Positions 42,764 through 57,656 are shown, counted from the first letter of the stretch. The stretch is 64,000 nucleotides of DNA from an uncultured delta proteobacterium (GCA_963775425.1 CAVZJB010000005.1:704001-768000); one strand, 5' to 3'. Translations and numbers: made by a program. The notes: generated from the sequence alone by a model not told the origin.

Positions 42764-44424
42764 ACGCGGGCGTGGCGCGGCGGCTCGTCCGCCCCGCGGG
42801 GCCACCGCGCGCCGACGTCGTCGTGGCGCTCTCGCTCGGGGTGGCGACCACCGTCCTCGTCGGGGTCACCGCGCAGAGCCTGGGGTTCACGCGCGACGAG
42901 GGCTACTACTTCAAGGCCGCCGAGCTGTACTGGGGCTGGTTCCGCGAGCTGTTCACGCACCCGTCGCTCGCGCTGACGGCGGCGGGCATCGACCAGCACT
43001 GGTCGTACAACCACGAGCACCCCGCGCTGTTGAAGACGCTCTTCGCGCTCTCGTACGGCGCACGCGAGGTGCTCGGCTTGCCGGTGCAGGTGCACAACGC
43101 GCTGCGGTTCCCCGCCTGGTGCGTGGCCGGCTTCACCACCGTCCTCGTCTACGCGTTCGCGCGCTCGCTGCTCCCGCGGCGCGCCGCCGTCATCGCTGCG
43201 CTCATGTGGGTCGCGATGCCGCGCGTCTTCTGGCACATGCACCTGTCGTGCTTCGACGTCGGCGTCGCCGGCGCGCACGTCGCGCTCGTGCTCGCCTACT
43301 GGCGGTGGCGAAGGACGGTGCGCGGCGCGCTCGCCGTCGGCGTCGTCTTCGGCCTGTGCGCGGCCGTGAAGCACAACGTGCTGCCGGTGCCGGCCATCCT
43401 CGTGCTCCACTGGGTCCTCGTCGAGGCCAAGGGGTCGCGGCGCATCCCGCTCGCGTTCTTCTCGATGGCGTTCGTGGGGCCCCTCGTCTACCTCGCGCAC
43501 TGGCCGTGGCTGTGGCCGCATCCCCTCGAGCGGTTCGGCGCGTACGTCGCCTACCACCTGAGCCACGAGAACTACCCGATCCTCTACTTCGGCGATCTCC
43601 TCACGCACCCGCCGTTCCCCTTCGCGTTCCCGTTCGTGATGTCGGCGGTGACCATCCCCGTGCCCATCCTGTGCGCGCTGGTCCTCGGCTTCTGCCTCGC
43701 GGTCGCCGTCGTCGTGCGCCTCGCCGTGCGGCGCATGAGCCGCGGCGCCACCAAGGGGGAGGCCGAGCTGACCATGGTCCCGCTCGGCGACGTCTCGCGG
43801 GACCCGTCCGCCTCCGCAGCGCTCATGCTGCTCCTGAACGCGCTGTACCCCTTTGTGCTCATCGCGCTGCCCACCACACCCATCTTCGGCGGCACCAAGC
43901 ACTGGATGAACGGGCTCCCGTTCCTCTGCATCCTCGGGGCGTGGGCCCTCGAGGAGGCCGCGCGGCGGCTCGAGGTGAGGCGCGCGTTCGCCGCGCTCGC
44001 CGTCTTTGTGGTGCTGCCCGGCGTCATCATCAGCGCGCGCACGTGGCCCTACGGGCTCGGGGCGTACAACGAGCTCATCGGCTTCGCCCGCGGGGCCGCC
44101 ACCGTCGGGATGCAGCGCACGTTCTGGGGGTACGAGCCCATGGCCGCGCTCCCGTTCATCAACGACAAGACGCCGCGCGGGGGCCGCATCCACTTCGGCG
44201 ACACCAACCACGACGACTGGCGCATGTACCGCCGCGACCATCTCTTGCGGGAGGACATCGACTTTTCGGGGACGGTGCGGGGCGCCGCGGTGGCCTCGGT
44301 GCAGCCGCAGGGAGAGTTCAAAGAGCAGTGGATGGACGTGTGGAACGAGTGGAAGGATCGGACGCCCGACGTGGTGCTCGGACCGGAGGGCGTCCCCTTC
44401 TTGACGGTTACGCTGCATGAGTGA
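42760..44424 (+). CDS. GT-C fold glycosyltransferase (GT39/PMT/ArnT-like)
   Basis: TRDEGYY acidic motif after TM1, EHP.L.K, about 11 TM helices, C-terminal periplasmic domain. Confidence 0.85.
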   Translation: MNAGVARRLVRPAGPPRADVVVALSLGVATTVLVGVTAQSLGFTRDEGYYFKAAELYWGWFRELFTHPSLALTAAGIDQHWSYNHEHPALLKTLFALSYGAREVLGLPVQVHNALRFPAWCVAGFTTVLVYAFARSLLPRRAAVIAALMWVAMPRVFWHMHLSCFDVGVAGAHVALVLAYWRWRRTVRGALAVGVVFGLCAAVKHNVLPVPAILVLHWVLVEAKGSRRIPLAFFSMAFVGPLVYLAHWPWLWPHPLERFGAYVAYHLSHENYPILYFGDLLTHPPFPFAFPFVMSAVTIPVPILCALVLGFCLAVAVVVRLAVRRMSRGATKGEAELTMVPLGDVSRDPSASAALMLLLNALYPFVLIALPTTPIFGGTKHWMNGLPFLCILGAWALEEAARRLEVRRAFAALAVFVVLPGVIISARTWPYGLGAYNELIGFARGAATVGMQRTFWGYEPMAALPFINDKTPRGGRIHFGDTNHDDWRMYRRDHLLREDIDFSGTVRGAAVASVQPQGEFKEQWMDVWNEWKDRTPDVVLGPEGVPFLTVTLHE

Positions 44425-46894
44425 CGACGTCCTGCCGGAGCCGCTGGAGAGCGAGGTGCGGACGCTGCTGCGACGCGGGGAGCACGCCGCCGCCGCCGCC
44501 GCGCTGTGGGCCCACGGCTACCCGCGACGCGCCGGGGCGATCTACGAGCACATCTTCGAGCACAAAAAGGCCCTCAACGCCTACGAGGCCGGCGGCGACA
44601 TCGTCGGCGCCGTCCGCGCGGCGCTCGAGCTCGGCGACGTCACCGCGCTCGATCGGCTCGTGACGCTCGCGATCGCGTCGGGGCAGGGCGACGCGCTCAT
44701 CGCATCCCTGCAGCGCGCCGGGCGCGACGCCGAGGTCGCGCGGGTGCACATCGCGCGCGGTGACCCGCTCGCGGCGGCGGAGCTCTTCGAGAAGGCCGGC
44801 CAGCTCGACCGCGCCGCCGAGTGCCTCGAGGAGGCGGGCAAGGCGCGCGAGGCGGGCGTGCTCCTGGAGCGCCACCTGGAGACGCACCCCGGAGACATCG
44901 AGGCCGGGCTGCTCCTCGGCCGCGTCGTGGCCCGCTTCGGCCGCCACGACGACGCCATCGCCATCCTCCAGCGCGCGGTGTCGTCGTCACCGGAGCCCGA
45001 CGTCACCCTCGCGCGGGCGGCGCCCACGCTCATGGTCTCGTTCGTCCAGCTCGGCTACGAGGAGGCCGCGCGGACCGTGCTGCAGCGCTGGCAGGGCGCG
45101 TGGGGGCGCTTGCAGCAGGCCGAGCGCACGGCGCCCGCCGACGTCGTCGACGCCCCGCCGGAGAGCTTCGACCTGTTCCTGCGCTCGGAGCGGGCGGCGG
45201 CCCTCGCCGCCATCCAGACCGGCACCCCGGGGGTCGGCTTCGATTCGAAAGATGCACAAGCGTCGCAGGCAGACCTCGACGCCCTCTTCGGCACGGCTGG
45301 GCCCGGCGCCGGCGCCGGCCCCGAAGCCGGGCGCGAGCCGGGCGCCGCCGCGGCGGGTCAGGACACGCTGCTCCTCGCGGGCCGCTACCTCCTCGGCGAG
45401 CCCCTGGGCGGCGGCGGCGTCGGGCAGGTGTTTCGCGCGTTCGACGCCTTCGGCGACCGCCCTGTCGCCGTGAAGATCTTCGGCGCGCAGGTGTTGTCGT
45501 CGGAGGCGGTGCAACATTACGCCCGCGAGGCGCGCGCCTTCGCCAGCCTTCGCCACCCGGCCATCACGCCGCTCGTCGAGCTCAACATGGCGCAGGGGTT
45601 CGTGGTCACCGAGCTGGTGAACGCGCCCACCGTCGAGGAGCGCCTGCGCCAGGGCGGCGACGGCGGCTGGCTGATGCCGGCCGCGCGCGCGCTGCTCGAT
45701 CTCCTGGCGAGCTGCCACCGCACCGGCCTCGTCCACGGCGGGCTCAAGCCCACCAACGTGTTCCTGATGCCCGCGGGCGTGCGCGTCGTCGACGTCGGCG
45801 CCCATCGATTGCTTGCTTTGAGAAGTACCGAAACCGGAGGGCTCTCGTCGGTGTGGCCCTACCTCGCGCCCGAGCAGCTCTTCGGCGCGCCCGCCGCCGC
45901 CGCCGGCGACCTCTACGCCGTGGGCGCCATCCTCTACCGCGCGCTCACCGGGCGGCCGCCCTTCGCCCGCGCCGAGGACGATCGGCGCGAGCCCCCGCCG
46001 CGCGCGTCCACCGTGAACCCCGCGCTGCCGCCGGCGTGGGACGCGTTCCTCGAGCGCGCGCTCGAGCCCGACGCCGCCAAGCGCTTCGTCGACGCCGCCG
46101 AGATGGACGCGGCGCTGCCGCCGCTGCCGGCCGGCTTCGCGCTGCCCGCGGCCGCGTCGCTCGGCGGCGATGCCGTGGGCGGCCAGGTGGTCGGCGCGTC
46201 GTCGCGCTACGCCAAGGGCGCGCTGGTGTTTCGCGAAGGGAAGAGCGTGCGCGTGTACGAGGGCACCGACCTCCTGCTCGAGCGCGCCGTGTGGCTCGTC
46301 GAGGCCGACGACTTCGAGGCGTTGGGCTCGCTCGTGGTCTGTGCGCGGCTGTGGCGCGGCGTTCAGCCGGTGTACGACGTCATCCCCGAGAAGAACCGCG
46401 TGGTCGTCGCCCGCGACCGCGGCGGCCGCCGCGCGGACCTCGAGGCGCTGCGCGCGGTGCCGCAGGGCTTGATGCGCGACCTCAACGGCGTGGCGCACGC
46501 GCTCGAGTGGTTCCACGAGCAGAGCCTGTGCTTCGGCGGCTTCCCCATCGAGCGCGCGCTCGGCCCCATCGGCCCGCGCCTGGCGCTGGCGCCGGCGCAC
46601 CTGCCGCACGCCGCCACCGAGGAGGGCAAGCAGGCGGACTGGGACGCCTTCGGCGCGCTCGTCGACACCGCCCTCGACCTCGCCCCCGACCCCACGCTCG
46701 ACGGCCGCGGGCGCGTGCTCGCCATGCTCCACGATCGCCGCCTGCTCGATCGCACCGACCTCGAGTCCCTCGGCGCCGAGGCGCAGTCGTTGACCAAGTG
46801 GCCGGCGTTCCTCGACGCCACCACCCAGCGCCTGGTGCAGGGCGCCTCGGCCCGCGTGGTCGCTCGCCTCGTGGCCAACGTGCTGCGCGGGTGA
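44417..46894 (+). CDS. TPR plus Ser/Thr kinase-like protein, probable pseudokinase
   Basis: N-terminal TPR-like helices; LGGGGVGQVF, VAVK, HGGLKPTN, DVG, YLAPE, DLYAVG; second degenerate kinase-like region. Confidence 0.85.
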   Translation: MSDDVLPEPLESEVRTLLRRGEHAAAAAALWAHGYPRRAGAIYEHIFEHKKALNAYEAGGDIVGAVRAALELGDVTALDRLVTLAIASGQGDALIASLQRAGRDAEVARVHIARGDPLAAAELFEKAGQLDRAAECLEEAGKAREAGVLLERHLETHPGDIEAGLLLGRVVARFGRHDDAIAILQRAVSSSPEPDVTLARAAPTLMVSFVQLGYEEAARTVLQRWQGAWGRLQQAERTAPADVVDAPPESFDLFLRSERAAALAAIQTGTPGVGFDSKDAQASQADLDALFGTAGPGAGAGPEAGREPGAAAAGQDTLLLAGRYLLGEPLGGGGVGQVFRAFDAFGDRPVAVKIFGAQVLSSEAVQHYAREARAFASLRHPAITPLVELNMAQGFVVTELVNAPTVEERLRQGGDGGWLMPAARALLDLLASCHRTGLVHGGLKPTNVFLMPAGVRVVDVGAHRLLALRSTETGGLSSVWPYLAPEQLFGAPAAAAGDLYAVGAILYRALTGRPPFARAEDDRREPPPRASTVNPALPPAWDAFLERALEPDAAKRFVDAAEMDAALPPLPAGFALPAAASLGGDAVGGQVVGASSRYAKGALVFREGKSVRVYEGTDLLLERAVWLVEADDFEALGSLVVCARLWRGVQPVYDVIPEKNRVVVARDRGGRRADLEALRAVPQGLMRDLNGVAHALEWFHEQSLCFGGFPIERALGPIGPRLALAPAHLPHAATEEGKQADWDAFGALVDTALDLAPDPTLDGRGRVLAMLHDRRLLDRTDLESLGAEAQSLTKWPAFLDATTQRLVQGASARVVARLVANVLRG

Positions 46895-48389: not shown

Positions 48390-48641
48390 CGCGGGGGGCG
48401 CGGTGGAGGGCTTCGGGCTTTTGCGCGCCGGTGGATCGCGGGGCGCCTCCGGGCCTGGAAGATCCGCTCATCGTGCTCGCCGTCCTTCGGTGCTCGCCGG
48501 CGCGTGTCGCCGGTCCGTCGCGTATCGGCCGGCGGCGGGAGCGGTTGCGCCGACGCGATCATGGCGCCGCTGTAGGTGTGACGCGCTTCAGCGGCGGACG
48601 CACGTCGACGGCGTGCCCAACCCGTCGTTCAGGCACCCCTC

Positions 48642-49445
48642 GGGCGCTACATCACCCTGCAAAACGCGCCCGACGCCGGCGGCCACGGTGACTTCATCCC
48701 GTTCTTCCTCGACGACATCGCCGCGGAGGAGCAGGCGCAGGGCAGGCGCCTCGTCGACGTCCTCGACCTGCATTGGTACCCCGAGGCCGTCGGCGACGGC
48801 GTCCGCATCAGCGACGTCGAAGACGCCACGGCGGCCGCCGCGCGTGTCCAGGCGCCGCGCTCGCTGTGGGACCCGAGCTACGCCGAGGACAGTTGGATCG
48901 TGAACGACTACCTCGGCGGCCCCATCGACCTGCTGCCCACGCTCTTCGCGCTCATCGACGAGCACGACCCGGGCGTGAAGCTCTCCTTCTCCGAGTGGAA
49001 CTACGGCGGCGGCGACGACGTCTCCGGCGCCCTCGCCGCCGCCGACGTCCTCGGCGTCTTCGGGCGCGAAGGCGTGTTCGCCGCCACCTTCTTCCCCCTG
49101 CGCGGCGGCGAGCCCTTCAGCCACGCCGGCATCCGCGTGTTCACCAACTACGACGGCGCCGGCGCGTCCTTCGGCGCCACCTCGGTGCAGGCCGACACCA
49201 GCGACCTCGAGCGCGTCACGGTCTACGCCTCCGACGACCCGCTCGTCATCGTCGCCGTCAACAAGTCCGCGTCCGCGTTGACCGCCGGCCTCACCGTGGC
49301 CGGGCCGCCGCTCGCGACGCTGCGCCGCTTCGTCCTCGACGGCGCCGCGCCCGCCATCGGCGCCGGCGACGCGGTCCAGGCGGCGGCGACGAACGCGTTC
49401 CTCGTGACGCTGCCGGCGTCGTCGGTGACCGTCTTCGCCCCGTAG
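48642..49445 (+). pseudogene. 5'-truncated glycoside hydrolase family 44 (endoglucanase/xyloglucanase) fragment
   Basis: LQNAPD, GRRLVDVLDLHWYPEA, RVQAPRSLWDPSYAEDSWI, KLSFSEWNYGG, ADVLGVFGREG; in-frame stops at 48573 and 48579 and no start codon before the homology begins. Confidence 0.82.
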
Positions 49446-49558
49446 CCTGGTCGTGATCGGGATGTGAATCCTCCGTTCCCGGATCGGTGTGCGCTCGATC
49501 GCGCCACGGTCCTCCGGGTGGCTGCGTAATCACGCCACCACCTGCAAGGAGGACCGTG

Positions 49559-50833
49559 ATGCGAACTCTCACCTCTCTCTGGCTCGCCCTTCCCCTCGTC
49601 TCCGCGCTCGCCGCCGCCTGCGCCGGCCCCGCCGGCCCCCAGGGCCCCGCGGGCCCCGCCGGCGCGGACGGCGCGGACGGCGCAGACGGCACGAACGGCA
49701 CGAACGGCGCGGACGGCGCCGACGGCGCCGACGGGCAAAACGGCGCGGACGGCCAAAACGGCGCCGACGGCCAGAACGGCCAGGACGGCGGCCTCAGCGC
49801 GTCGCCGGCGGTCTACGTGATGACCAACGACCCGACCGGCAACGGCATCATGGCGTTCGAGCGCGCGCCCGACGGCTCGCTCTACCTCATCGACACCTTC
49901 CCCACCGGCGGCCTCGGCAGCGGCGGCGGCCTCGGCGACCAGTACGCCTTCGCGTTCGACGAGGCGCTCCAGCGCTTCTTCGTGGTGAACGCGGGCGACA
50001 GCACCATCTCCATGCTCCAGTTGCTCGACTCCGACGGCAGCCTGCGCATCGTCGACGTCGTCGACGCCGGGGGCGTCGCGCCCGTCAGCATCACGGTGGA
50101 CGGCGACCGCGTGTTCGTGGTCAACGCCGGTGACGCCGGGAACGCCGTGAACGCCAACATCGCCGGCTTCTCCGTCGACACCTACTCGCTCACGCCCATC
50201 GCGAATTCGAGCCTGCCGCTGTCCGCCGCGAACCCCGGACCGGCCGCCATCCAGTTCACGCCCGACGGCACGCACCTCGTCGTCACCGAGAAGGGCACCA
50301 ACCTCATCGACACCTTCGCCGTCGCCGCCGACGGCACCACGAGCGCCTTCCACGGGAACACCTCCGCGGGCCAGACCCCGTTCGGCTTCAGCTTCTCCGC
50401 CGACGGCCAGCTCCTCGTCTCCGAGGCCGCGGGCGGCACCGCCGGGGCCTCCACCGTGAGCTCCTACACCATCGCCAGCAACGGCACGCTCACGCCGGTG
50501 ACGAGCGCGCTGGCGCTGCAGCAGTCGGCGGCGTGCTGGGTGGCCGTGTCCGGGCCCTACGCCTGGACCACCAACACCGCCAGCGGCAACGTGAGCGGGC
50601 TCAACATCGCCAGCGACGGCACCCTCAGCCTCATCGACGCCGACGGCAACAGCGGCGCCACGGGCGCGGGCCCCATCGACGAGGCCGTGAGCCCCGACGG
50701 CAAGTTCCTCTACGTCCTCGACAACGGCGCCCACGCCATCTCGAGCTTCGCCATCAACGCCGACGGCAGCCTCGACAAGCTCCCCGACGTCACCGACCTC
50801 CCCGCCGGCGTGCTCGGCCTCGTCGCCCGCTGA
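49559..50833 (+). CDS. Lipoprotein with collagen-like Gly-X-Y stalk and lactonase-like (6-phosphogluconolactonase-type) beta-propeller
   Basis: AAGGAGG SD; LAAA-C lipobox; 18 GXY triplets; AVYVMTND, FVVNAGD, FTPDG..LVVTEK, AACWV, SPDGKFLYV. Confidence 0.88.
   Translation: MRTLTSLWLALPLVSALAAACAGPAGPQGPAGPAGADGADGADGTNGTNGADGADGADGQNGADGQNGADGQNGQDGGLSASPAVYVMTNDPTGNGIMAFERAPDGSLYLIDTFPTGGLGSGGGLGDQYAFAFDEALQRFFVVNAGDSTISMLQLLDSDGSLRIVDVVDAGGVAPVSITVDGDRVFVVNAGDAGNAVNANIAGFSVDTYSLTPIANSSLPLSAANPGPAAIQFTPDGTHLVVTEKGTNLIDTFAVAADGTTSAFHGNTSAGQTPFGFSFSADGQLLVSEAAGGTAGASTVSSYTIASNGTLTPVTSALALQQSAACWVAVSGPYAWTTNTASGNVSGLNIASDGTLSLIDADGNSGATGAGPIDEAVSPDGKFLYVLDNGAHAISSFAINADGSLDKLPDVTDLPAGVLGLVAR
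49625..49786 (+). repeat. Collagen-like 9-bp-period repeat (GPA/GAD/GTN/GQN)
   Basis: 18 consecutive Gly-X-Y triplets. Confidence 0.92.
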
Positions 50834-50920: not shown

Positions 50921-53686
50921 TCACAGGCCGGCGTAGGAGAAGACGCCCGTGGCGGTGCCGACGACCTTGGTGTGGTCGGCGAGCACGGCGATGGCGCGGC
51001 AGTCGTTGCTGGGCAGGCCGTCGGCGGTGGTGATGGCCACCACGCTCGGGATCCCGGCGTCGACCCGGCCGAGGCCGTTGGTCGTCGCCGCCCAGGCCAC
51101 CTCGTGGGCGGCGCCGCCGACGTCGACGAGGTCGACGGCGATGGCCCGGACGTCGTTCGAGGGCATGCCGTCCTGGGTGCGGAAGCAATCGTTGGCGCCC
51201 GTGATCACGTCATGGCGCACCGCGCCCGCCTGCGTGGAGAACCACGCGTCGCCCGAGGGCGCCACCGTGACCGCGCGGACGCCGTCGCCGCCCGGGATGT
51301 CGACATTGGTGAACGTGGTGCCGTCGGCGCTCACGCTCGGCGCGGCCGGCGGCGTCATGGTCTGGACGCCCTGCGACGTCACCACCCAGACATCGCCGGT
51401 CACGGGATCGAACGCCACGTCGAGGACGCTCGAGCTGCGGAGCCGATCGCCCAGGCCGTCGCCCTGGCAGATCTGCTGGTGGGTGTCGCTCGCCCAGTCC
51501 GAGAACATCAGGCACTGGCTCGTCGCCGTCACCGTGCGCCCGTCGGGGAGGACGGCGACCGCGCGGATGCTGTCGGTGTTGAGCGCGAGATCTCCTTCGC
51601 GGAACACCTGGCAGCTCTGCAGCGTGGCGTCGCAGCCGAAGCCGAGGCCGTTCGACGTCGACACCATGATGGTGCCGTCGACGTAGACGGCCACGTCGCG
51701 CACGGTGTTGCCGGGGATGTCGGAGCTCCCCGTCGTGAACACGGTCGCGCCGCCGAGGTCGAGCGCCACGTCCACCGCGCCGTCGTTGGTCGAGGCCCAC
51801 AGCGTGGCGCTGGCGGGGTCGAACAGCAGATCGTTCACCTGCGACCCCAGCGACCGCGCCTGAAACAGCGAAGAAAACGGCGCGCCGCCCGGCGTGGCGA
51901 AGAAGCTCACGGCGTCCGAGGCCGTGACGCCCGCGGAGTCGGTGGCGGCGAGCGTGACCGTGTGCTTGCCGGTGAGCATGCCGTTCGCGCTGATGCTCGC
52001 GCCGCTCCCGAGCGCGCCGTTTTGCGAGTCCGTCCACGACGGGACCAGGGCGCCGTCCTCGGCGTCCGTGGCCGTGCCCGCGAGGGCCACGGCCGCGCTG
52101 TTGTCGACGGTGCTCCCGTTCGTCGGCGACGGCGGTGAATCGATGGTCACCACGGGCGCGCTGTTGACGACGACGACCACGGCGTCGCTGGCGGTGTCGG
52201 CCCCGGCGGTGACCGTGAGCGTGACGGTGTGCGTGCCGCCGGACAGGTTGGCGAAGATGGTGTTGCCGGTGCCGAGCGCGCCGTCGAGGCTCGAGCTCCA
52301 CGAGAGCGCGGCGCCGTTTTGCTGCCCGCCGGGCAGGGCGCAGCCCTCGCCGCTGAAGCGTTGGTTGTCGCCGAGGGCGATCACCGTCCCCGACGACGGG
52401 CTCGTGATCAGCGCCGCCGGTGACGTCAGAGTCAGGTTCACCGTCTGCGTCGCCGACGCGCCACGGCTGTCGGTGGCCTCGCACGTGAGCGCGTGCGCTC
52501 CGGCGATGCTCGGGCGGTACTGCGTGTTGCGCGACGTTGCGATCTCCGCGCCGTCCTCGAGCCAGCGGAAGGTCACGGCCTGGTTTTCGGGATCGACGGC
52601 GTTGCACGACAGCGAGATGGGCACGTCACACGCGCTGAAGATGGCGCCGTCGTTGGGCGCGTTGACGGTGACGGCGGGAGGTTGGTTCGGCTGCACCGTC
52701 ACCTCCACCGACGCGCAGCCGGTGACGTTCTGCGGATCCACGGTGTCCGGCGCGCACACGGTCACCGTGAAGGTGCCGACGTCGACGAGGGCCTGTGTGA
52801 CGGTGGCGCCGAAGCCCAGGGACGCGAGGCTCGGCATGTCGCTTTGCCAGTGGTAGTCCTGATTCGCGATGGCGCCGCTGCCGTCGCGGTCCACGCAGGT
52901 CGCCGTGAACGTCGCCGAGTCGCCCTGCACCACCACCGTGCCGTCCGGCGGCGCCGTGATGGTGCACAGGGGCGGCACGTTGTCGACGACGTGCACGATG
53001 ATCGACGTCGTCGCGGTGGCGCTGGCGGAGTCGGTGGCGGCGAGCGCGATGGTGTGGTCGCCGAGCGGCAGCGCCGTGGAGACCAGGGCGCCGGTGCCGA
53101 GGCTCTGCCCGTTGTCGGTCCACACCAGGGACGTCCCCGTGAGCGCGCCGTCCTCCGGATCCACGGCGGTGCCGTTGAACGTGATGGTCTCGCTCGACAG
53201 GAAGAAGCTGCCGTCGGCGGGCGCCGTGATGCTCACCGTGGGCAGTGCGTTTTCGAGCACGTCGACGGAGACGGAGGCTGTGCCGACGTTGCCGGCGCTG
53301 TCGGTGGCAGCGCAGGTGATGATGTGGGTGCCCGCGGTGATCAGGGCGTTCTGCACCGTGCCGCCGGTGCCGATGTGCCCCTCGAGATCCGAGGACCAAT
53401 CGATGGCGGCGTTGTCGAGGGGGCCGTCCTCGGCGTCGACGGCGGTGCAGGTGAACAGGATGCTCTCCCCCTGTGCGAAGCTCGCGCCGTCCGTCGGGGC
53501 CGTGATGGTGACGACGGGGACGGTGTCTCCCTCTCCCTCGCCTTCCCCTTCGCCTTCCCCCTCGCCTTCGCCTTCTCCTTCTCCCTCCCCCTCGCCTTCT
53601 CCTTCGGCGGCGACGGGCGCCTCACAACTGCACCCCCAGAACGACGACAACGCGACAACGCAAACAGCAAGAGCAACAGCACGCAT
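50921..53686 (-). CDS. Large lipoprotein: (EG)13 linker, about six Ig/PKD-like repeats, C-terminal two-component-regulator-type beta-propeller
   Basis: GGAGG SD; WG-C lipobox; repeated P.V.IT.P.DG..A.D.EDG.L..W..G.H.ITL.ATDS; W..T..G and DGLPSN blades. Confidence 0.88.
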   Translation of the reverse strand: MRAVALAVCVVALSSFWGCSCEAPVAAEGEGEGEGEGEGEGEGEGEGEGEGEGDTVPVVTITAPTDGASFAQGESILFTCTAVDAEDGPLDNAAIDWSSDLEGHIGTGGTVQNALITAGTHIITCAATDSAGNVGTASVSVDVLENALPTVSITAPADGSFFLSSETITFNGTAVDPEDGALTGTSLVWTDNGQSLGTGALVSTALPLGDHTIALAATDSASATATTSIIVHVVDNVPPLCTITAPPDGTVVVQGDSATFTATCVDRDGSGAIANQDYHWQSDMPSLASLGFGATVTQALVDVGTFTVTVCAPDTVDPQNVTGCASVEVTVQPNQPPAVTVNAPNDGAIFSACDVPISLSCNAVDPENQAVTFRWLEDGAEIATSRNTQYRPSIAGAHALTCEATDSRGASATQTVNLTLTSPAALITSPSSGTVIALGDNQRFSGEGCALPGGQQNGAALSWSSSLDGALGTGNTIFANLSGGTHTVTLTVTAGADTASDAVVVVVNSAPVVTIDSPPSPTNGSTVDNSAAVALAGTATDAEDGALVPSWTDSQNGALGSGASISANGMLTGKHTVTLAATDSAGVTASDAVSFFATPGGAPFSSLFQARSLGSQVNDLLFDPASATLWASTNDGAVDVALDLGGATVFTTGSSDIPGNTVRDVAVYVDGTIMVSTSNGLGFGCDATLQSCQVFREGDLALNTDSIRAVAVLPDGRTVTATSQCLMFSDWASDTHQQICQGDGLGDRLRSSSVLDVAFDPVTGDVWVVTSQGVQTMTPPAAPSVSADGTTFTNVDIPGGDGVRAVTVAPSGDAWFSTQAGAVRHDVITGANDCFRTQDGMPSNDVRAIAVDLVDVGGAAHEVAWAATTNGLGRVDAGIPSVVAITTADGLPSNDCRAIAVLADHTKVVGTATGVFSYAGL
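53528..53605 (-). repeat. (Glu-Gly)13-coding repeat
   Basis: 78 nt with mixed synonymous codons. Confidence 0.92.
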
Positions 53687-53706
53687 GGTGACCTCCACCT
53701 TGGGCT

Positions 53707-53734
53707 GCTACGCATGCTGTTGCATGCTGCGATC
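53707..53734 (-). promoter_or_regulatory. Putative ECF-sigma promoter of the large lipoprotein gene (GATCGC-N15-GCGTAGC)
   Basis: Minus strand GATCGC agcatgcaacagcat GCGTAGC; same boxes and spacing as upstream of the ECF gene. Confidence 0.7.
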
Positions 53735-53770
53735 TCACACGCTGTTTACATACGCACGGGGACTTCCGTC

Positions 53771-53798
53771 GATCGCGATCGGCGTCGTCTCGCGTAGC
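53771..53798 (+). promoter_or_regulatory. Putative autoregulatory ECF-sigma promoter (GATCGC-N15-GCGTAGC)
   Basis: GATCGC gatcggcgtcgtctc GCGTAGC, followed by GAGGT SD and GTG 53813. Confidence 0.7.
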
Positions 53799-53812
53799 TC
53801 TCGAGGTACTGC

Positions 53813-54472
53813 GTGACTCTCGAGGAAGACCGGGCGCTGTTGGACAACTATCGCCGCGGCGACCGCGCAGCGATGGCCGCGGTGTTTCGCATGTACGTCG
53901 ACGACGTCGCGCGCACGATCCGCGCCGGTGTCGTCGTCAACGTCGAAGGACGACGCACCCGGCTCGGCGTGCGCATGCCCGAGCACGACGTGGAGGTGCT
54001 CATCCAGGAGACCTTCACGCGCGCCTTCGCCCCCAGGGCGCGGGAGAGCTACGACGGGCTGCGCCCCTTCGGCGCCTACCTGGCCACCATCGCGCGGAAC
54101 CTGATCGTCGATCGCGGACGCAAAGAGGTGCGTGCGCAAAAGAGCTTCGTGGCCGTGGCCGACATCGCCGACCTCGCGGACCCGGATGAGGAAGATCCCA
54201 CCTGGCGCCTGGAGGAGCAGAGCCTCGCGCGCATCGTGTCGGAGATGAAGGACTCCCTCGAAGAGCCGGACAAGTCGATCTTCATCTGTCGCGTGGAGCG
54301 GCGGATGTCCTTCAAGGAGGCGGCGGCGGCGGTGTCCCTGTCCGAGATCGTCGTCCGCCGGCGCGACACGCGCATGCGCTCGGAGCTCCTCGCTCGCCTG
54401 CGCAGCCATGGTTTTCTCGAGAACGCCAGAGTCCGGATCGGGACCAGCCTCCTGCCGCGTAGGAGCCGGTGA
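53813..54472 (+). CDS. ECF-type RNA polymerase sigma-70 factor
   Basis: D..LL..YRRGD.AAM..V, DVE.LIQETF.RAF, F.AYL.TIARNL.VD..R (region 2), MSFKEAA...S...V (region 4). Confidence 0.9.
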   Translation: MTLEEDRALLDNYRRGDRAAMAAVFRMYVDDVARTIRAGVVVNVEGRRTRLGVRMPEHDVEVLIQETFTRAFAPRARESYDGLRPFGAYLATIARNLIVDRGRKEVRAQKSFVAVADIADLADPDEEDPTWRLEEQSLARIVSEMKDSLEEPDKSIFICRVERRMSFKEAAAAVSLSEIVVRRRDTRMRSELLARLRSHGFLENARVRIGTSLLPRRSR

Positions 54473-55299
54473 TGCGCCTGATGTCCCTCCTTTTGCCCCG
54501 CTACGCCGCCGGAACGCTCTCGCCGTTCCTGGCGCGCCGGGTGCGCGCGGCGCTGGCGGCGGATCCGGCGCTCGCCGCCGCGTACGACGCGCTGCGTCGC
54601 GCCGAGCGTGCGGCCTCGGGGCAGCCGCTGTCGTCGGGGCAACGAGAGACCCTCGAGGCGCTCCTGTTCTCTGGGCCCCTCTCTGGGGAGTCCCCGGCGC
54701 CGGCCGTGGCGCGCGGGCGGGTCGGGTGGAGCGCCTGGGGCTCCGCGCTCGCCGCGGCCGCCGTCGTCGCCTTCGCCGTGGTGCGGGTGGACCCGCCGGC
54801 GCACGGGCCCGGCAGCGTCGGCGCGCTCGAGGCCCGCGGCGCGCACATCGCCAAGGACCCCGTGGGCGTGAAGGTCTCGTGCCTGACCCGCGACAACGCC
54901 ATCGTCGACACCGCCACCGCCGGCGCCCGCCGCGCGCTCGACGTCCTGCGCTGCCCGGCGTCGAGCCTCCTGGCCTTCTCCACCACCAACCTGAGCCATG
55001 AGACGCGCCAGGTGTTCGTGGTCGGCGTCGCCCCCGACGGCAGCCGCCGCTGGTACGCCCCCTTCACCGGCGCGTCGGTGGCCGTCGGCCCCGGCGTCAT
55101 CGACAACGTGTTGCCGTCGCTCGCCGACACCTTGGGGATGCCGGGCGGCGACGTCACCCTGTTCGTCCTCGTGTCCGACACGGCGTTCTCCGCCGACCAG
55201 CTCGAGCGCCAGCTCAAAAAGAGCGCGCTCCCCCTGGGCCATCTCGACCGCCTGCCCGTCGACGTTCCGCTGCAGGCGCGCATCGAGCTGACGCCGTAG
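54469..55299 (+). CDS. Putative membrane-spanning anti-sigma factor (ZAS-like N-domain without zinc ligands, TM, periplasmic beta-domain)
   Basis: Coupled to the sigma gene; L.RY..G.LS...R.V...L...P pattern; single TM; LEARG then a DUF4384-like beta-rich domain. Confidence 0.72.
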   Translation: MMRLMSLLLPRYAAGTLSPFLARRVRAALAADPALAAAYDALRRAERAASGQPLSSGQRETLEALLFSGPLSGESPAPAVARGRVGWSAWGSALAAAAVVAFAVVRVDPPAHGPGSVGALEARGAHIAKDPVGVKVSCLTRDNAIVDTATAGARRALDVLRCPASSLLAFSTTNLSHETRQVFVVGVAPDGSRRWYAPFTGASVAVGPGVIDNVLPSLADTLGMPGGDVTLFVLVSDTAFSADQLERQLKKSALPLGHLDRLPVDVPLQARIELTP

Positions 55300-55308
55300 G
55301 ATCCCCAC

Positions 55309-56880
55309 GTGCTGCTGCTCGCGCTCCTGGTGGCCGCCGCCCCCGCGCCCCCCGGCGGCGGGGGGCCCGCGGCGCTCTCGGGCGAGGCCGACACGGCCCG
55401 CTACGTCGTCGTCATGGGCTACAACGGCGGCGCCCCCGACCCGCGCGCCCCGCTGCGCTTCAGCGACGACGACGCCGCCCGCCTGTTCGAGCTCCTCTCG
55501 CCGTCGTCGGAGCGCGCGTTCCTGCTCGCCACCTTCGACGCCGAGAGCGCCAAGCTCTTCCCCGAGCTCACCGACGTCGCCCGCGAGCCCACCCGCGAGC
55601 AGCTCGCGCAGGTGCTCGGCGAGGTGCAGTGGCTCGTGCGCGCCAAGAAGAAGCAGGGGGTGCGCACGGAGCTCGTGTTCGCCTTCGCCGGCCACGGCGA
55701 CGTCAACGACGCCGGCGAGGGCTACGTGGTCCTCGCCGACGGCCCGTTTACGCGCACGGACCTCGAGACGCAGGTCATCGACCCGTCGCCCGCCGACGTG
55801 AACCACGTCATCATCGACGCGTGCTCGTCGTACTTCATGGTGTCCCGCGGCGGCGACGCCAAGAGCGGCGTGGTCGCGCTCACGCCCAAGGTCCTCAACG
55901 TCCTCAAGGGGACCACCGCGTCATCGGCGGCGGCGCGGGCGCGGACCGGCGTGTTGGTGTCGACGTCGGGCGCCGCCGAGGTGCACGAGTCCGGCGAGCT
56001 CGAAAGCGGCGTGTTCTCGTTCCTGCTGCGCTCTGCGCTCGCCGGGGCGGCCGACAACAACGGCGACGGCCGCGTCGAGTACGCCGAGGCCGCCGCCTTC
56101 ATCTCCGCCGCCAGCGCCGGCCTCGACGACCCGCGCGCCAAGCTCTCCGTGCACGCGGAGGCGCCGCTGCAGCGCCCCCACGTCGCGCTCATGGACCTCG
56201 CGCGCTCCGGCGCCACCCGTTTTTTGAAGGTCGACGGCAAGCAGGCGGTGCACGTGCGCATCCTCGACGCCCACGGCGTCCCCTATGCCGAGCTCAACCG
56301 CGCGGCGGGCCACGGGCCCGTGGTGCTCGCCCTGCAGCGCGACCCGTTCTACGTCGTGCAAGAGGGACAAAAGGAGGCGCTCCTCGTTCCGCGCGCCGCC
56401 GGCGCCTACGCCCTGTCCTCGCTGTCGTTCGAGGACTCGCCCGCGCCGCGCGCGGCGTCGGAGCACCTGCGCGGCCTGTTCGCTACGCCCTACGGTGACG
56501 ACGTCGTGACCGGCTTCCTCGGCGCCTCCGAGATGGCGCCGCCTTTGGACGGCACGGTGTTCGATCCGCCGTACGCCGAAAAGGGAACGCCGCCGCTGCG
56601 GCTGCCGCTGAGCACCGTGGCGCTGGTGACGCTCGGCGTCGCGGGCGCGGTCGGCCTCGCCGCCGGCGGCGCCGTCGTCGGCAACGAGCTGTCGTTCAGC
56701 AAGCTGCAGGCGGACTTCGCGCGCACCGGCACGCTCGACCCGCAGACCTCGCTCCAGGTGGAGAGCTGGCGCACCGGCGCCACCGCGCTCACGCTCGGCG
56801 CCGTCGCCCTCGGCCTCGCCGGCGGCGGGCTGTATCTTTGGTCGACGACGCTGCCGGAGGGGGAGGTCGAGCTTCGATGA
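55309..56880 (+). CDS. Exported caspase-family (peptidase C14-like) protease with C-terminal membrane helices
   Basis: Signal peptide; VVVMGYN, LRFSDDDA, FAFAGHG (H129), VIIDACSS (C172), GVFS..L..AL.GAADNNGDG.V; two C-terminal hydrophobic helices. Confidence 0.88.
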   Translation: MLLLALLVAAAPAPPGGGGPAALSGEADTARYVVVMGYNGGAPDPRAPLRFSDDDAARLFELLSPSSERAFLLATFDAESAKLFPELTDVAREPTREQLAQVLGEVQWLVRAKKKQGVRTELVFAFAGHGDVNDAGEGYVVLADGPFTRTDLETQVIDPSPADVNHVIIDACSSYFMVSRGGDAKSGVVALTPKVLNVLKGTTASSAAARARTGVLVSTSGAAEVHESGELESGVFSFLLRSALAGAADNNGDGRVEYAEAAAFISAASAGLDDPRAKLSVHAEAPLQRPHVALMDLARSGATRFLKVDGKQAVHVRILDAHGVPYAELNRAAGHGPVVLALQRDPFYVVQEGQKEALLVPRAAGAYALSSLSFEDSPAPRAASEHLRGLFATPYGDDVVTGFLGASEMAPPLDGTVFDPPYAEKGTPPLRLPLSTVALVTLGVAGAVGLAAGGAVVGNELSFSKLQADFARTGTLDPQTSLQVESWRTGATALTLGAVALGLAGGGLYLWSTTLPEGEVELR

Positions 56881-57656
56881 CGTACCTGGCTCGCCCCGAC
56901 GTCGCCCTCCTCCGCGCGCTCGCCGGCGCGGGCGCGCTCGTCGTCGCCACCACCGCGTGCCCCTTGCTGCCGGGCGTCGGCGACCTCGAGAACAAGATCA
57001 ACGCACAGGTCGTCGTCACCGACGTGGGCGCGCACCGCACGGTGCACATCGCCGTCGCCGGGCAGAAGATCGACTCCAAGGAGACGTCGCGGCGCCAGGA
57101 CGTCACCGTCGACCTCATCATCGACGACCCGGGCGACTACGACGGCGTGGTGACCATCGCGCGCGCCGGCCGCGACGGCTTCGAGCGCTGCGGCGCCTTC
57201 TCGCTCCACGTCGACGACGACGGCGACACCGATCACGTCTTCGTCGCCGCCGGCGACATCCCCGCGTGCTCGCCGCCCGGCGAAGGGGAAGGCGAAGGCG
57301 AAGGAGAGGGCGAAGGAGAGGGCGATGAGGGCGAAGGCGAAGGCGAGGGCGAGGGCGATCCGCCCCAGGTGACCCTCGAGTCTCCCGACGACGGCACGCA
57401 CTACGGCGAGGCCGAGCCGTTCGAGGGGCTGTGCTCCGCGTCCGATCGCGAGGACGGCCAGTTGCCTCCGGGCAGCTTCTTTTGGACCATCGACGGCATC
57501 GACAACGTGTTCGCCCACGGCGTCCACGTGGTCACGCTGCTGCTCGTGCGCGACGGGCCCCACGACATCCAGTGCTGCGTCACCGACAGCGACGGCAACA
57601 CCGCGTGCGACGCCATCACCGTCTGCATCGGCGACGACGACTGCCCCGGGACCTGA
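56877..57656 (+). CDS. Lipoprotein with (GE)n linker and one Ig/PKD-like domain
   Basis: ATGA-coupled to caspase gene; TTA-C lipobox-like; PQVTLESPDDG..CSASDREDG.L..W..G.H.I.C.VTDSDGN. Confidence 0.82.
   Translation: MTYLARPDVALLRALAGAGALVVATTACPLLPGVGDLENKINAQVVVTDVGAHRTVHIAVAGQKIDSKETSRRQDVTVDLIIDDPGDYDGVVTIARAGRDGFERCGAFSLHVDDDGDTDHVFVAAGDIPACSPPGEGEGEGEGEGEGEGDEGEGEGEGEGDPPQVTLESPDDGTHYGEAEPFEGLCSASDREDGQLPPGSFFWTIDGIDNVFAHGVHVVTLLLVRDGPHDIQCCVTDSDGNTACDAITVCIGDDDCPGT
57279..57359 (+). repeat. (Gly-Glu)n-coding repeat
   Basis: GEGEGEGEGEGEGEGDEGEGEGEGEGD with mixed codons. Confidence 0.92.

Follow-up and report, generated by a model that had tools for sequence, protein, structure and literature searches.

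The locus and its gene products

The sequence analysed here, hereafter the window, is a 64,000-nt stretch of DNA from an uncultured delta proteobacterium (GCA_963775425.1 CAVZJB010000005.1:704001-768000), and it carries at 53813-57656 (+) four coupled genes encoding a sigma factor of the extracytoplasmic function (ECF) type, a single-pass anti-sigma factor, a protein of the C14 caspase fold and a lipoprotein. The module is real and conserved, and its gene architecture is already in print; what is new here is a nearly invariant arginine of the anti-sigma factor, Arg123, which gives the reading that the caspase-fold protein controls the sigma factor by proteolysis a sharply defined candidate cleavage site. 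With a G+C content of about 73% in the window, genuine frames were picked by the G+C content at the third codon position (GC3), which amounts to 0.88-0.96 in the frames of these four genes and of a fifth, divergent lipoprotein gene; the five genes that a preliminary description of the window had placed at the coordinates given below are all confirmed in GC3-supported frames. From the sigma factor to the lipoprotein, the genes are joined by start/stop overlaps or a 9-nt gap: the start of the anti-sigma gene overlaps the sigma stop (GTGA, with an alternative ATG at 54472), 9 bases separate the anti-sigma stop from the start of the caspase gene, and the ATG of the small lipoprotein gene (56877) overlaps the caspase stop (ATGA).

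The sigma factor (219 aa, 53813-54472, +) comprises the sigma-2 and sigma-4 regions only and belongs to the ECF type (group 4), with matches to TIGR02937 (53.6 bits, cut-off 42.9), Sigma70_r2 (29 bits, cut-off 24) and the ECF model Sigma70_ECF (21.5 bits, cut-off 21.1). Regarding the anti-sigma factor (276 aa, 54469-55299, +), the AlphaFold2 (AF2) model has an overall predicted local distance difference test score (pLDDT) of 82.6 and consists of four N-terminal helices (residues 2-67, pLDDT 86-96) followed by a disordered stretch, a single membrane helix (87-103), a second disordered stretch (105-114), a short helix of low confidence (118-129) that contains Arg123, and a confident beta-sandwich (132-275, pLDDT >90, encoded at 54862-55293, +). 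The protein scores 24.4 bits against the antisigma model NF052375, under its cut-off of 100, and E 0.025 against zf-HC2, for which homologues reach E 8.5e-4. The zinc motif HxxxCxxC is absent from the window protein, which had been described as zinc-less, as well as from its close relatives; because distant homologues have the motif and match zf-HC2, the window protein is, judged from these profiles, a zinc-less member of a ZAS-derived family.

No Pfam family was found for the beta-sandwich, and Foldseek returned a weak likeness to the PDE6-delta/RhoGDI sandwiches (E about 1e-3), from which no function was drawn. In the protein atlas, both this sandwich and the N-domain of the small lipoprotein fell only into unnamed Myxococcota clusters or scored <0.9. 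Cys138 and Cys162 are each kept in 143 of 150 aligned anti-sigma sequences, and the sandwich is probably disulfide-bonded. DUF4384, a family that the preliminary description had put forward for searching, was detected neither in the anti-sigma factor (E up to 5) nor in the caspase (E up to 1).

The search with Peptidase_C14 (PF00656), suggested at the same time, gave the caspase-fold protein (523 aa, 55309-56880, +) 24.4 bits at residues 47-243, marginally above the cut-off of 21.4, and a precomputed PF00656 match exists for only 5 of the 120 homologues listed. Compared by sequence with solved structures, the profile of the protein family retrieved no caspase, only EF-hand proteins. Recognition of the fold took a structure search: the AF2 model (pLDDT 90.6, predicted template modelling score 0.87) runs from a hydrophobic, signal-peptide-like N-terminus through a disordered stretch, the caspase domain, a loop, an EF-hand and an Ig-like sandwich (at about 280-370) to a hairpin, and its best Foldseek matches are the caspase-Ig3 part of MALT1 (E 1.8e-7; PDB 4i1p and 3uo8), together with metacaspases of yeast (Yca1, 4f6p), Candida, a trypanosome (TbMCA2, 4afp) and a plant (AtMC9, 8a53) and with Geobacter GSU0716 (3bij). 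AF2 and Foldseek together thus place the protein in the caspase-hemoglobinase fold.

An alignment of 71 homologues, down to 33% identity, bears out the catalytic dyad that had been reported as intact: H129 (in GHG, codon 55693-55695) and C172 (in DAC, codon 55822-55824), which delimit the segment 55693-55824 (+), are invariant in 71/71, as are D170, D53, D55, R180, D249 and E260. The last two bound a 12-residue loop, D249-N-N-G-D-G-R-V-E-Y-A-E260 (56053-56088, +), which fits the calcium-binding pattern DxNxDGxVxxxE, with D253 and G254 kept in at least 90% of the 71 sequences; the EF-hand proteins matched by the profile lie at 241-264 (2jnx, E 1.1e-4), and Pfam EF-hand_5 matches in homologues are weak and under the cut-off. 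Such a loop suggests that the protease may depend on calcium. Directly past the catalytic cysteine, residues 181-188 form a disordered loop (pLDDT <50), a region where caspase-family enzymes are commonly processed. At its start lies Arg180-Gly181 (55846-55851, +), where G181, beside the invariant R180, is at least 90% conserved in the same alignment, and the Ser-Arg180-Gly loop is a possible autoprocessing site of the protease.

The C-terminal hairpin (residues 434-512; 56608-56844, +) is made of two hydrophobic helices, 434-473 and 478-512, modelled at a pLDDT of about 97, and is swapped for other C-terminal modules in distant relatives; in the window protein, it likely anchors the protease in the inner membrane. 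Export of the protein is likely since distant homologues begin with classical, textbook signal peptides, and given those signal peptides together with the Cys pair kept in the sandwich, the protease and the anti-sigma sandwich would probably both be periplasmic.

Conservation of the module and of Arg123

The counts that follow rest on tblastn and profile matches, since a number of caspase or sigma genes had escaped the automatic gene calls. Homologues of the caspase are present in 218 of the 401 sampled genomes of the phylum (E <= 1e-10, including one unpublished genome, G195, which enters into this tally only). When the 29 best caspase-homologue loci outside this genome were examined with 1.5-kb flanks each, a sigma homologue was found within 1.5 kb at 24 of them, the sigma/anti-sigma pair being divergent from the caspase gene in four loci. 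This genome (G000) has exactly two members of the anti-sigma family, on contigs C5 and C4, and each of its two full-length caspases has one of them directly upstream. Across 21 genomes at least 90% complete (this one and 20 relatives), all 10 anti-sigma matches lie directly upstream of a caspase match on the same strand. Sigma factor, anti-sigma factor and caspase very probably form one functional unit.

Trios of this kind had been thought possible in other myxobacteria; they recur across the phylum, and the supposition understates a record in print since 2012. In Myxococcus xanthus, four of the five metacaspases share an operon with an ECF sigma factor (Asplund-Samuelsson et al. 2012, PMC3501461), and the DK1622 operons tabulated there list an ECF sigma factor, a one-transmembrane protein (MXAN_4950, 6682, 7215 and 7455) and a metacaspase (Table S2, rows 282-285); in two of these operons a lipoprotein follows the metacaspase, and one also has a PKD protein. 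The same operon structure was reported for four other deltaproteobacterial genera, including Anaeromyxobacter, Haliangium and Sorangium, as well as for Ralstonia and Fibrobacter (PMC3501461). In gene order, the architecture is the same as in the window. In its passages and table on these operons, that paper confines itself to tabulation: the one-transmembrane protein is not called an anti-sigma factor, and no substrate, site or mechanism is proposed.

The strongest constraint lies in the anti-sigma factor. Among 31 aligned homologues, down to 19% identity, only R123, C138 and C162 are invariant. The codons of Arg123-Gly124, in L120-E-A-R/G, are at 54835-54840 (+), where the preliminary description had put a candidate cleavage site, and the conservation of a basic residue before glycine past the membrane helix, proposed there as a check, was borne out at the basic position. 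With the anti-sigma family as profile, 1.84 billion representative proteins yielded 4114 matches at E <= 1e-3, of which 1000 reach <= 1e-10 and 101 reach <= 1e-30; in the best 150 of these, the R123 column holds Arg in 146 and Lys in one of the 147 sequences covering the site, the remaining 3 being gaps in N-terminally truncated fragments. In cleavage-site notation, P1' in the same 150 is Gly in 116, Ser in 21 and Ala in 7, P2 is Ala in 85 and Pro in 21, and P4 is Leu, Phe, Trp or Tyr in 136. The linker around Arg123 varies in length and sequence.

The same motif emerges when one starts from the caspase. The open reading frame (ORF) upstream of the caspase homologue was inspected in 31 non-redundant loci, 3 further loci being devoid of an upstream ORF. 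In 21 of the 31 it encodes a one-transmembrane anti-sigma-like protein, and 21/21 of these carry hydrophobic-x-small-Arg-Gly/Ser/Ala, 5 to 35 residues past the membrane helix; the remaining 10 comprise one weak paralogue without the motif (L004), two unrelated ORFs and seven with no transmembrane protein in the chosen frame. The motif is also present in both of the divergent Myxococcaceae-type loci inspected.

Several paralogous and distant loci extend this picture. A second full trio of this genome (G000:C4:50083-54549; L002, L042) is 45%, 37% and 49% identical to the window genes, and its anti-sigma factor has an Arg-Gly motif (HARG). Another paralogous locus, at G000:C18:26700-27760 (L003), is decayed: a sigma fragment adjoins a caspase gene represented only by its C-terminal hairpin part, after which comes a paralogue of the small-lipoprotein N-domain, and the codon-bias filter left no intact ORF there. 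In a distant caspase paralogue (G000:C11:249000-251579, L004), the dyad is present as SGH and DSC, one loop resembles an EF-hand and the protein ends in WFDF, and the one-transmembrane protein preceding it is without the Arg-Gly/Cys-pair signature although the dyad is kept; no natural pair of a dyad-less protease with an Arg-less anti-sigma factor was found. In one family relative (G074:C385:1301-3140, L006), a TAG interrupts the caspase gene and the anti-sigma gene is detectable only as a fragment. In Myxococcaceae-type loci (L048, 8250-8996; L053, 8094-9029), the caspase is without the C-terminal hairpin, whereas a gene of its own downstream codes for a protein with a signal peptide, a periplasmic domain and a hairpin of two helices very like the missing one, as though the anchor had been split off. 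Downstream genes in other lineages encode TSP3-repeat/OmpA proteins (calcium-binding) and Cys-rich MopE-motif proteins (L037 9617-13510, L049 2135-6457, L051 5400-6932, L045 8558-9655), a calcium and envelope theme that recurs beside the EF-hand protease.

Proposed site-1 proteolysis of the anti-sigma factor and competing explanations

Arg123, just outside the membrane, probably marks the point where the protease cuts the anti-sigma factor; in the model it sits in a segment of low confidence (pLDDT 51-72) between the disordered stretch and the sandwich. In the mechanism proposed, the sigma factor would be held at the inner membrane by the zinc-less N-domain of the anti-sigma factor, the membrane helix of which would be followed outside by a flexible linker with Leu-x-Ala-Arg123-Gly and then by the beta-sandwich. 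The co-translated protease would be exported, tethered to the inner membrane by its C-terminal hairpin and activated by a signal, the candidates being calcium, envelope damage or the lipoprotein partner, with self-cleavage at the Ser-Arg180-Gly loop as a possible activating step. Once active, it would cut the anti-sigma factor after Arg123; an RseP-type M50 site-2 protease would then cut the membrane helix, cytoplasmic proteases would remove the N-domain stub, and the freed sigma factor would probably transcribe its own operon and envelope genes. M50 site-2 proteases (PF02163 over the cut-off) are encoded in this genome on contigs C16 and C7, the C7 match being RseP-like and interrupted by an insert in a frame of 680 aa.

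Control of an ECF sigma factor by site-1 and site-2 proteolysis is of a known kind. In E. coli RpoE/RseA/DegS/RseP, a single-pass anti-sigma factor is cut first in the periplasm, by a dedicated, membrane-anchored site-1 protease, and then by an M50 site-2 protease (PMC7826278, supplement); DegS, however, is a PDZ serine protease encoded outside the sigma operon, whereas the window candidate is a caspase-fold cysteine protease encoded beside its presumed substrate. Comparable, too, is M. xanthus DdvS/DdvA, where an ECF sigma factor is held by a single-pass anti-sigma factor (PMC11506125, PMC6061681), where a periplasmic His/Cys module of the caspase superfamily is proposed to clip a flexible juxtamembrane linker as the site-1 step, and where RseP degrades DdvA once the periplasmic domain has been removed (PMC11506125). 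In DdvA, as presented there, the TPR-CHAT module is fused to the anti-sigma factor and has an active site that is not complete; it is proposed to act in trans, by autoproteolysis between the partners of a dimer, and cleavage was not observed (PMC11506125). The window system differs in having a separate C14-type protease with its own membrane anchor and EF-hand, no TPR, and a small beta-sandwich (145 residues) instead of TPR-CHAT as the periplasmic part of the anti-sigma factor. The type III-E Craspase is a further parallel, in that a caspase-superfamily protease frees an ECF-type sigma factor by cutting an inhibitor; it is cytoplasmic, RNA-guided, of the CHAT type and CRISPR-linked, none of which applies to the window system.

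Regarding specificity, a comparison can be made with MALT1, the best structural match of the window model, which shares a caspase domain with a following Ig-like domain. For MALT1, Arg is near-absolute at P1 and Leu is favoured at P4, the optimum being Leu-Val-Ser-Arg (PMC3304489), and the linker motif hydrophobic-x-Ala/Pro-Arg-Gly/Ser resembles this LVSR preference. Sequence identity is 12-14%, and MALT1 is a eukaryotic, cytoplasmic protein with death and Ig domains, the constructs and passages compared having no EF-hand or membrane anchor. Together with the Arg/Lys-specific structural neighbours, the position of D170, two residues before the catalytic Cys, hints, indirectly, at an Arg/Lys specificity of the window protease at P1.

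A literature search on C14 or caspase proteins with ECF sigma and anti-sigma factors retrieved no paper demonstrating a C14 protease acting on an anti-sigma factor, in line with the preliminary description, whose authorship knew of none. CHAT, subtilase and carboxypeptidase genes have been noted near ECF54 (review, PMC8999054). In the part of the ECF-group supplement covered (PMC7826278), the terms caspase and C14 are absent, and its later groups may bear on the matter; the same supplement gives EF-hands in the gene context of ECF216, a group restricted to Myxococcales, and a tie of that group to the window sigma factor is a lead only.

Several observations weigh against cleavage of the anti-sigma factor by this protease. 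The N-terminus of the window caspase is without a basic n-region. The pocket that would accommodate Arg at P1 is presumed: we take D170 of the D-x-C motif and D53/D55 to line S1 from their resemblance to the metacaspase/MALT1 motif. Some distant relatives have, instead of the hairpin, a C-terminal module ending in aromatic residues, and a differing anchor makes access to a site 9-35 residues from the inner membrane less obvious. Besides, 5 of the 29 loci are without a sigma homologue within 1.5 kb (one of them on too short a contig), and 6 of 16 strong caspase matches in the 21 genomes are without an anti-sigma match at E <= 1e-10 (five in one genome, one at a contig edge). R123 itself is modelled inside the short helix 118-129 and not in a fully disordered stretch, and an Arg fixed at the boundary of a domain could have a structural role or be the target of some other protease. 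A natural anti-sigma/caspase fusion was sought among the longer proteins and none was found, which is weak evidence. Prediction of the complex between caspase residues 25-425 and anti-sigma residues 106-276 scored 0.01 and 0.05 (mark 0.32) and speaks neither for nor against binding.

An unlikely alternative is that the trio cooperates without the caspase-like protein cutting the anti-sigma factor. The protein would then be a sensor or co-regulator binding the sandwich, RseB-like or as a receiver of the signal, or its substrates would be other envelope proteins, e.g. the neighbouring lipoproteins; Arg123 would have a structural role or be cut by a general periplasmic protease. In favour of this view, synteny as such fits any functional partnership, lipoprotein or Ig/PKD genes recur beside the module, the helix in which R123 is modelled packs beside the sandwich domain, and a protease with a seemingly different, possibly outer-membrane, anchor would be far from the juxtamembrane site. 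Against it, a partner that does no catalysis would have no use for a dyad kept in every homologue aligned, the remainder of the linker is free to vary in length and sequence, as structural elements seldom are, and the motif resembles, at P4, P2, P1 and P1', what an Arg-specific clan CD enzyme would cut. Improbable to a somewhat greater degree is that the caspase and the lipoprotein are mere cargo of an ECF operon, expressed under the sigma factor and serving predation, the remodelling of the envelope or programmed cell death, without feedback on an anti-sigma factor inactivated by a different stimulus: the targets of an ECF sigma factor are often encoded in its own operon, cell death has long figured in the discussion of metacaspases (PMC3501461) and the downstream envelope genes are variable (TSP3-OmpA, MopE-like), but the anti-sigma and caspase families pair one-to-one in adjacent positions, this pairing persists where sigma/anti-sigma and caspase lie on opposite strands, which argues for a specific relation of the anti-sigma factor with the caspase rather than of the sigma factor with cargo, and the invariant Arg would be left unexplained.

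That the caspase-fold protein is the dedicated site-1 protease of the anti-sigma factor is the reading we prefer, the balance of arguments for and against its being correct standing about level. Its extension, namely that across Myxococcota exported calcium-sensitive C14 caspases would act in trans as site-1 proteases, each for the adjacent anti-sigma factor and cutting after a single invariant arginine in hydrophobic-x-Ala/Pro-Arg/Gly with MALT1-like subsites, is put forward more tentatively, a shade to the doubtful side.

The role of bacterial caspase homologues is a long-standing question, the discussion of which has centred mostly on cell death. The module offers a concrete test, in which protease and substrate are both specified and one scissile bond is predicted, in a module type tabulated in the tractable M. 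xanthus. Should dedicated site-1 cleavage prove true, it would add a new protease class to the site-1 proteases releasing ECF sigma factors and represent the separated-protein counterpart of the still unproven autoproteolysis model of the DdvA CHAT module; the sets of possibly orthogonal sigma/anti-sigma/protease switches that it would supply are of interest for synthetic circuits. Its extension across Myxococcota, if true, would provide the first defined physiological substrate for bacterial caspase homologues and a role in signalling rather than in cell death. The paralogous switches that one genome contains, two intact trios in this one and four operons in M. xanthus, would then need orthogonality, via exosites on the two beta-sandwich domains.

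Lipoproteins, intergenic region and neighbouring genes

The small lipoprotein (259 aa, 56877-57656, +) consists of an N-domain, a (GE)n linker and one Ig (Big_7-like) domain, and no Pfam family was found for it. Since homologues of its N-domain adjoin the caspase gene, directly 3' of it, in G026, G120, G137 and G084, besides the decayed C18 locus, it is, by gene order, a family-level fourth gene of the module. A role as sensor or inhibitor, as first suggested for it, is at most a candidate drawn from synteny.

The divergent lipoprotein (50921-53686, -; 921 aa counted from ATG) has a lipobox, a (GE)n linker, several Big_7 (E 1.4e-17) and PKD (E 6.5e-12) Ig repeats and a C-terminal repeat region; it is a putative member of the module. 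The preliminary description had tied the two lipoproteins together by a common Ig repeat and a common (GE)n linker. The first part stands: the Ig domain of the small lipoprotein is most similar to the first Ig repeat of the large one (45% identical, E 3e-21). The second does not, as the (GE)n linker looks like a lineage-wide lipoprotein spacer and hence makes no specific tie between the two: with the small lipoprotein as query, 28 matches came from this genome and 12-37 from family relatives, and the majority of those listed cover only (GE)n. Such linkers abound in these genomes, behind the lipobox as well as between domains, and several relatives have, just upstream of the sigma gene, a gene ending in Asp/Glu/Gly-rich repeats. 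The large lipoprotein had also been taken for the output of the system; its divergent position is kept only in G026, and motif searches in the window and in relatives yielded no promoter evidence tying it to the sigma factor.

Between the two divergent transcription units lies a 126-bp intergenic region (53687-53812) with a perfect 12-bp palindrome, CGATCGCGATCG, at 53770-53781, 32 bases 5' of the sigma start, which could be an operator; no equivalent was seen in relatives. No sigma-70-like promoter was found in the region, nor any -35/-10 motif common to the window and relatives or to both sides of the intergenic region.

Downstream of the module sit a PD40/TolB-like propeller protein and thiL, which appear unrelated to it. 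Further upstream, a TPR-containing Ser/Thr protein kinase gene (44405-46894; Pkinase E 7e-23) is followed by a cytochrome c gene and then by the gene of a DUF1361 membrane protein, with no link to the module seen. The ORF at 48582-49445, which may be a truncated gene, resembles a GH44 EpsB-like hydrolase in the C-terminal part of the latter only; adjoining it, at 49487-50833, is the gene of a lactonase-type beta-propeller protein with an N-terminal collagen triple-helix repeat.

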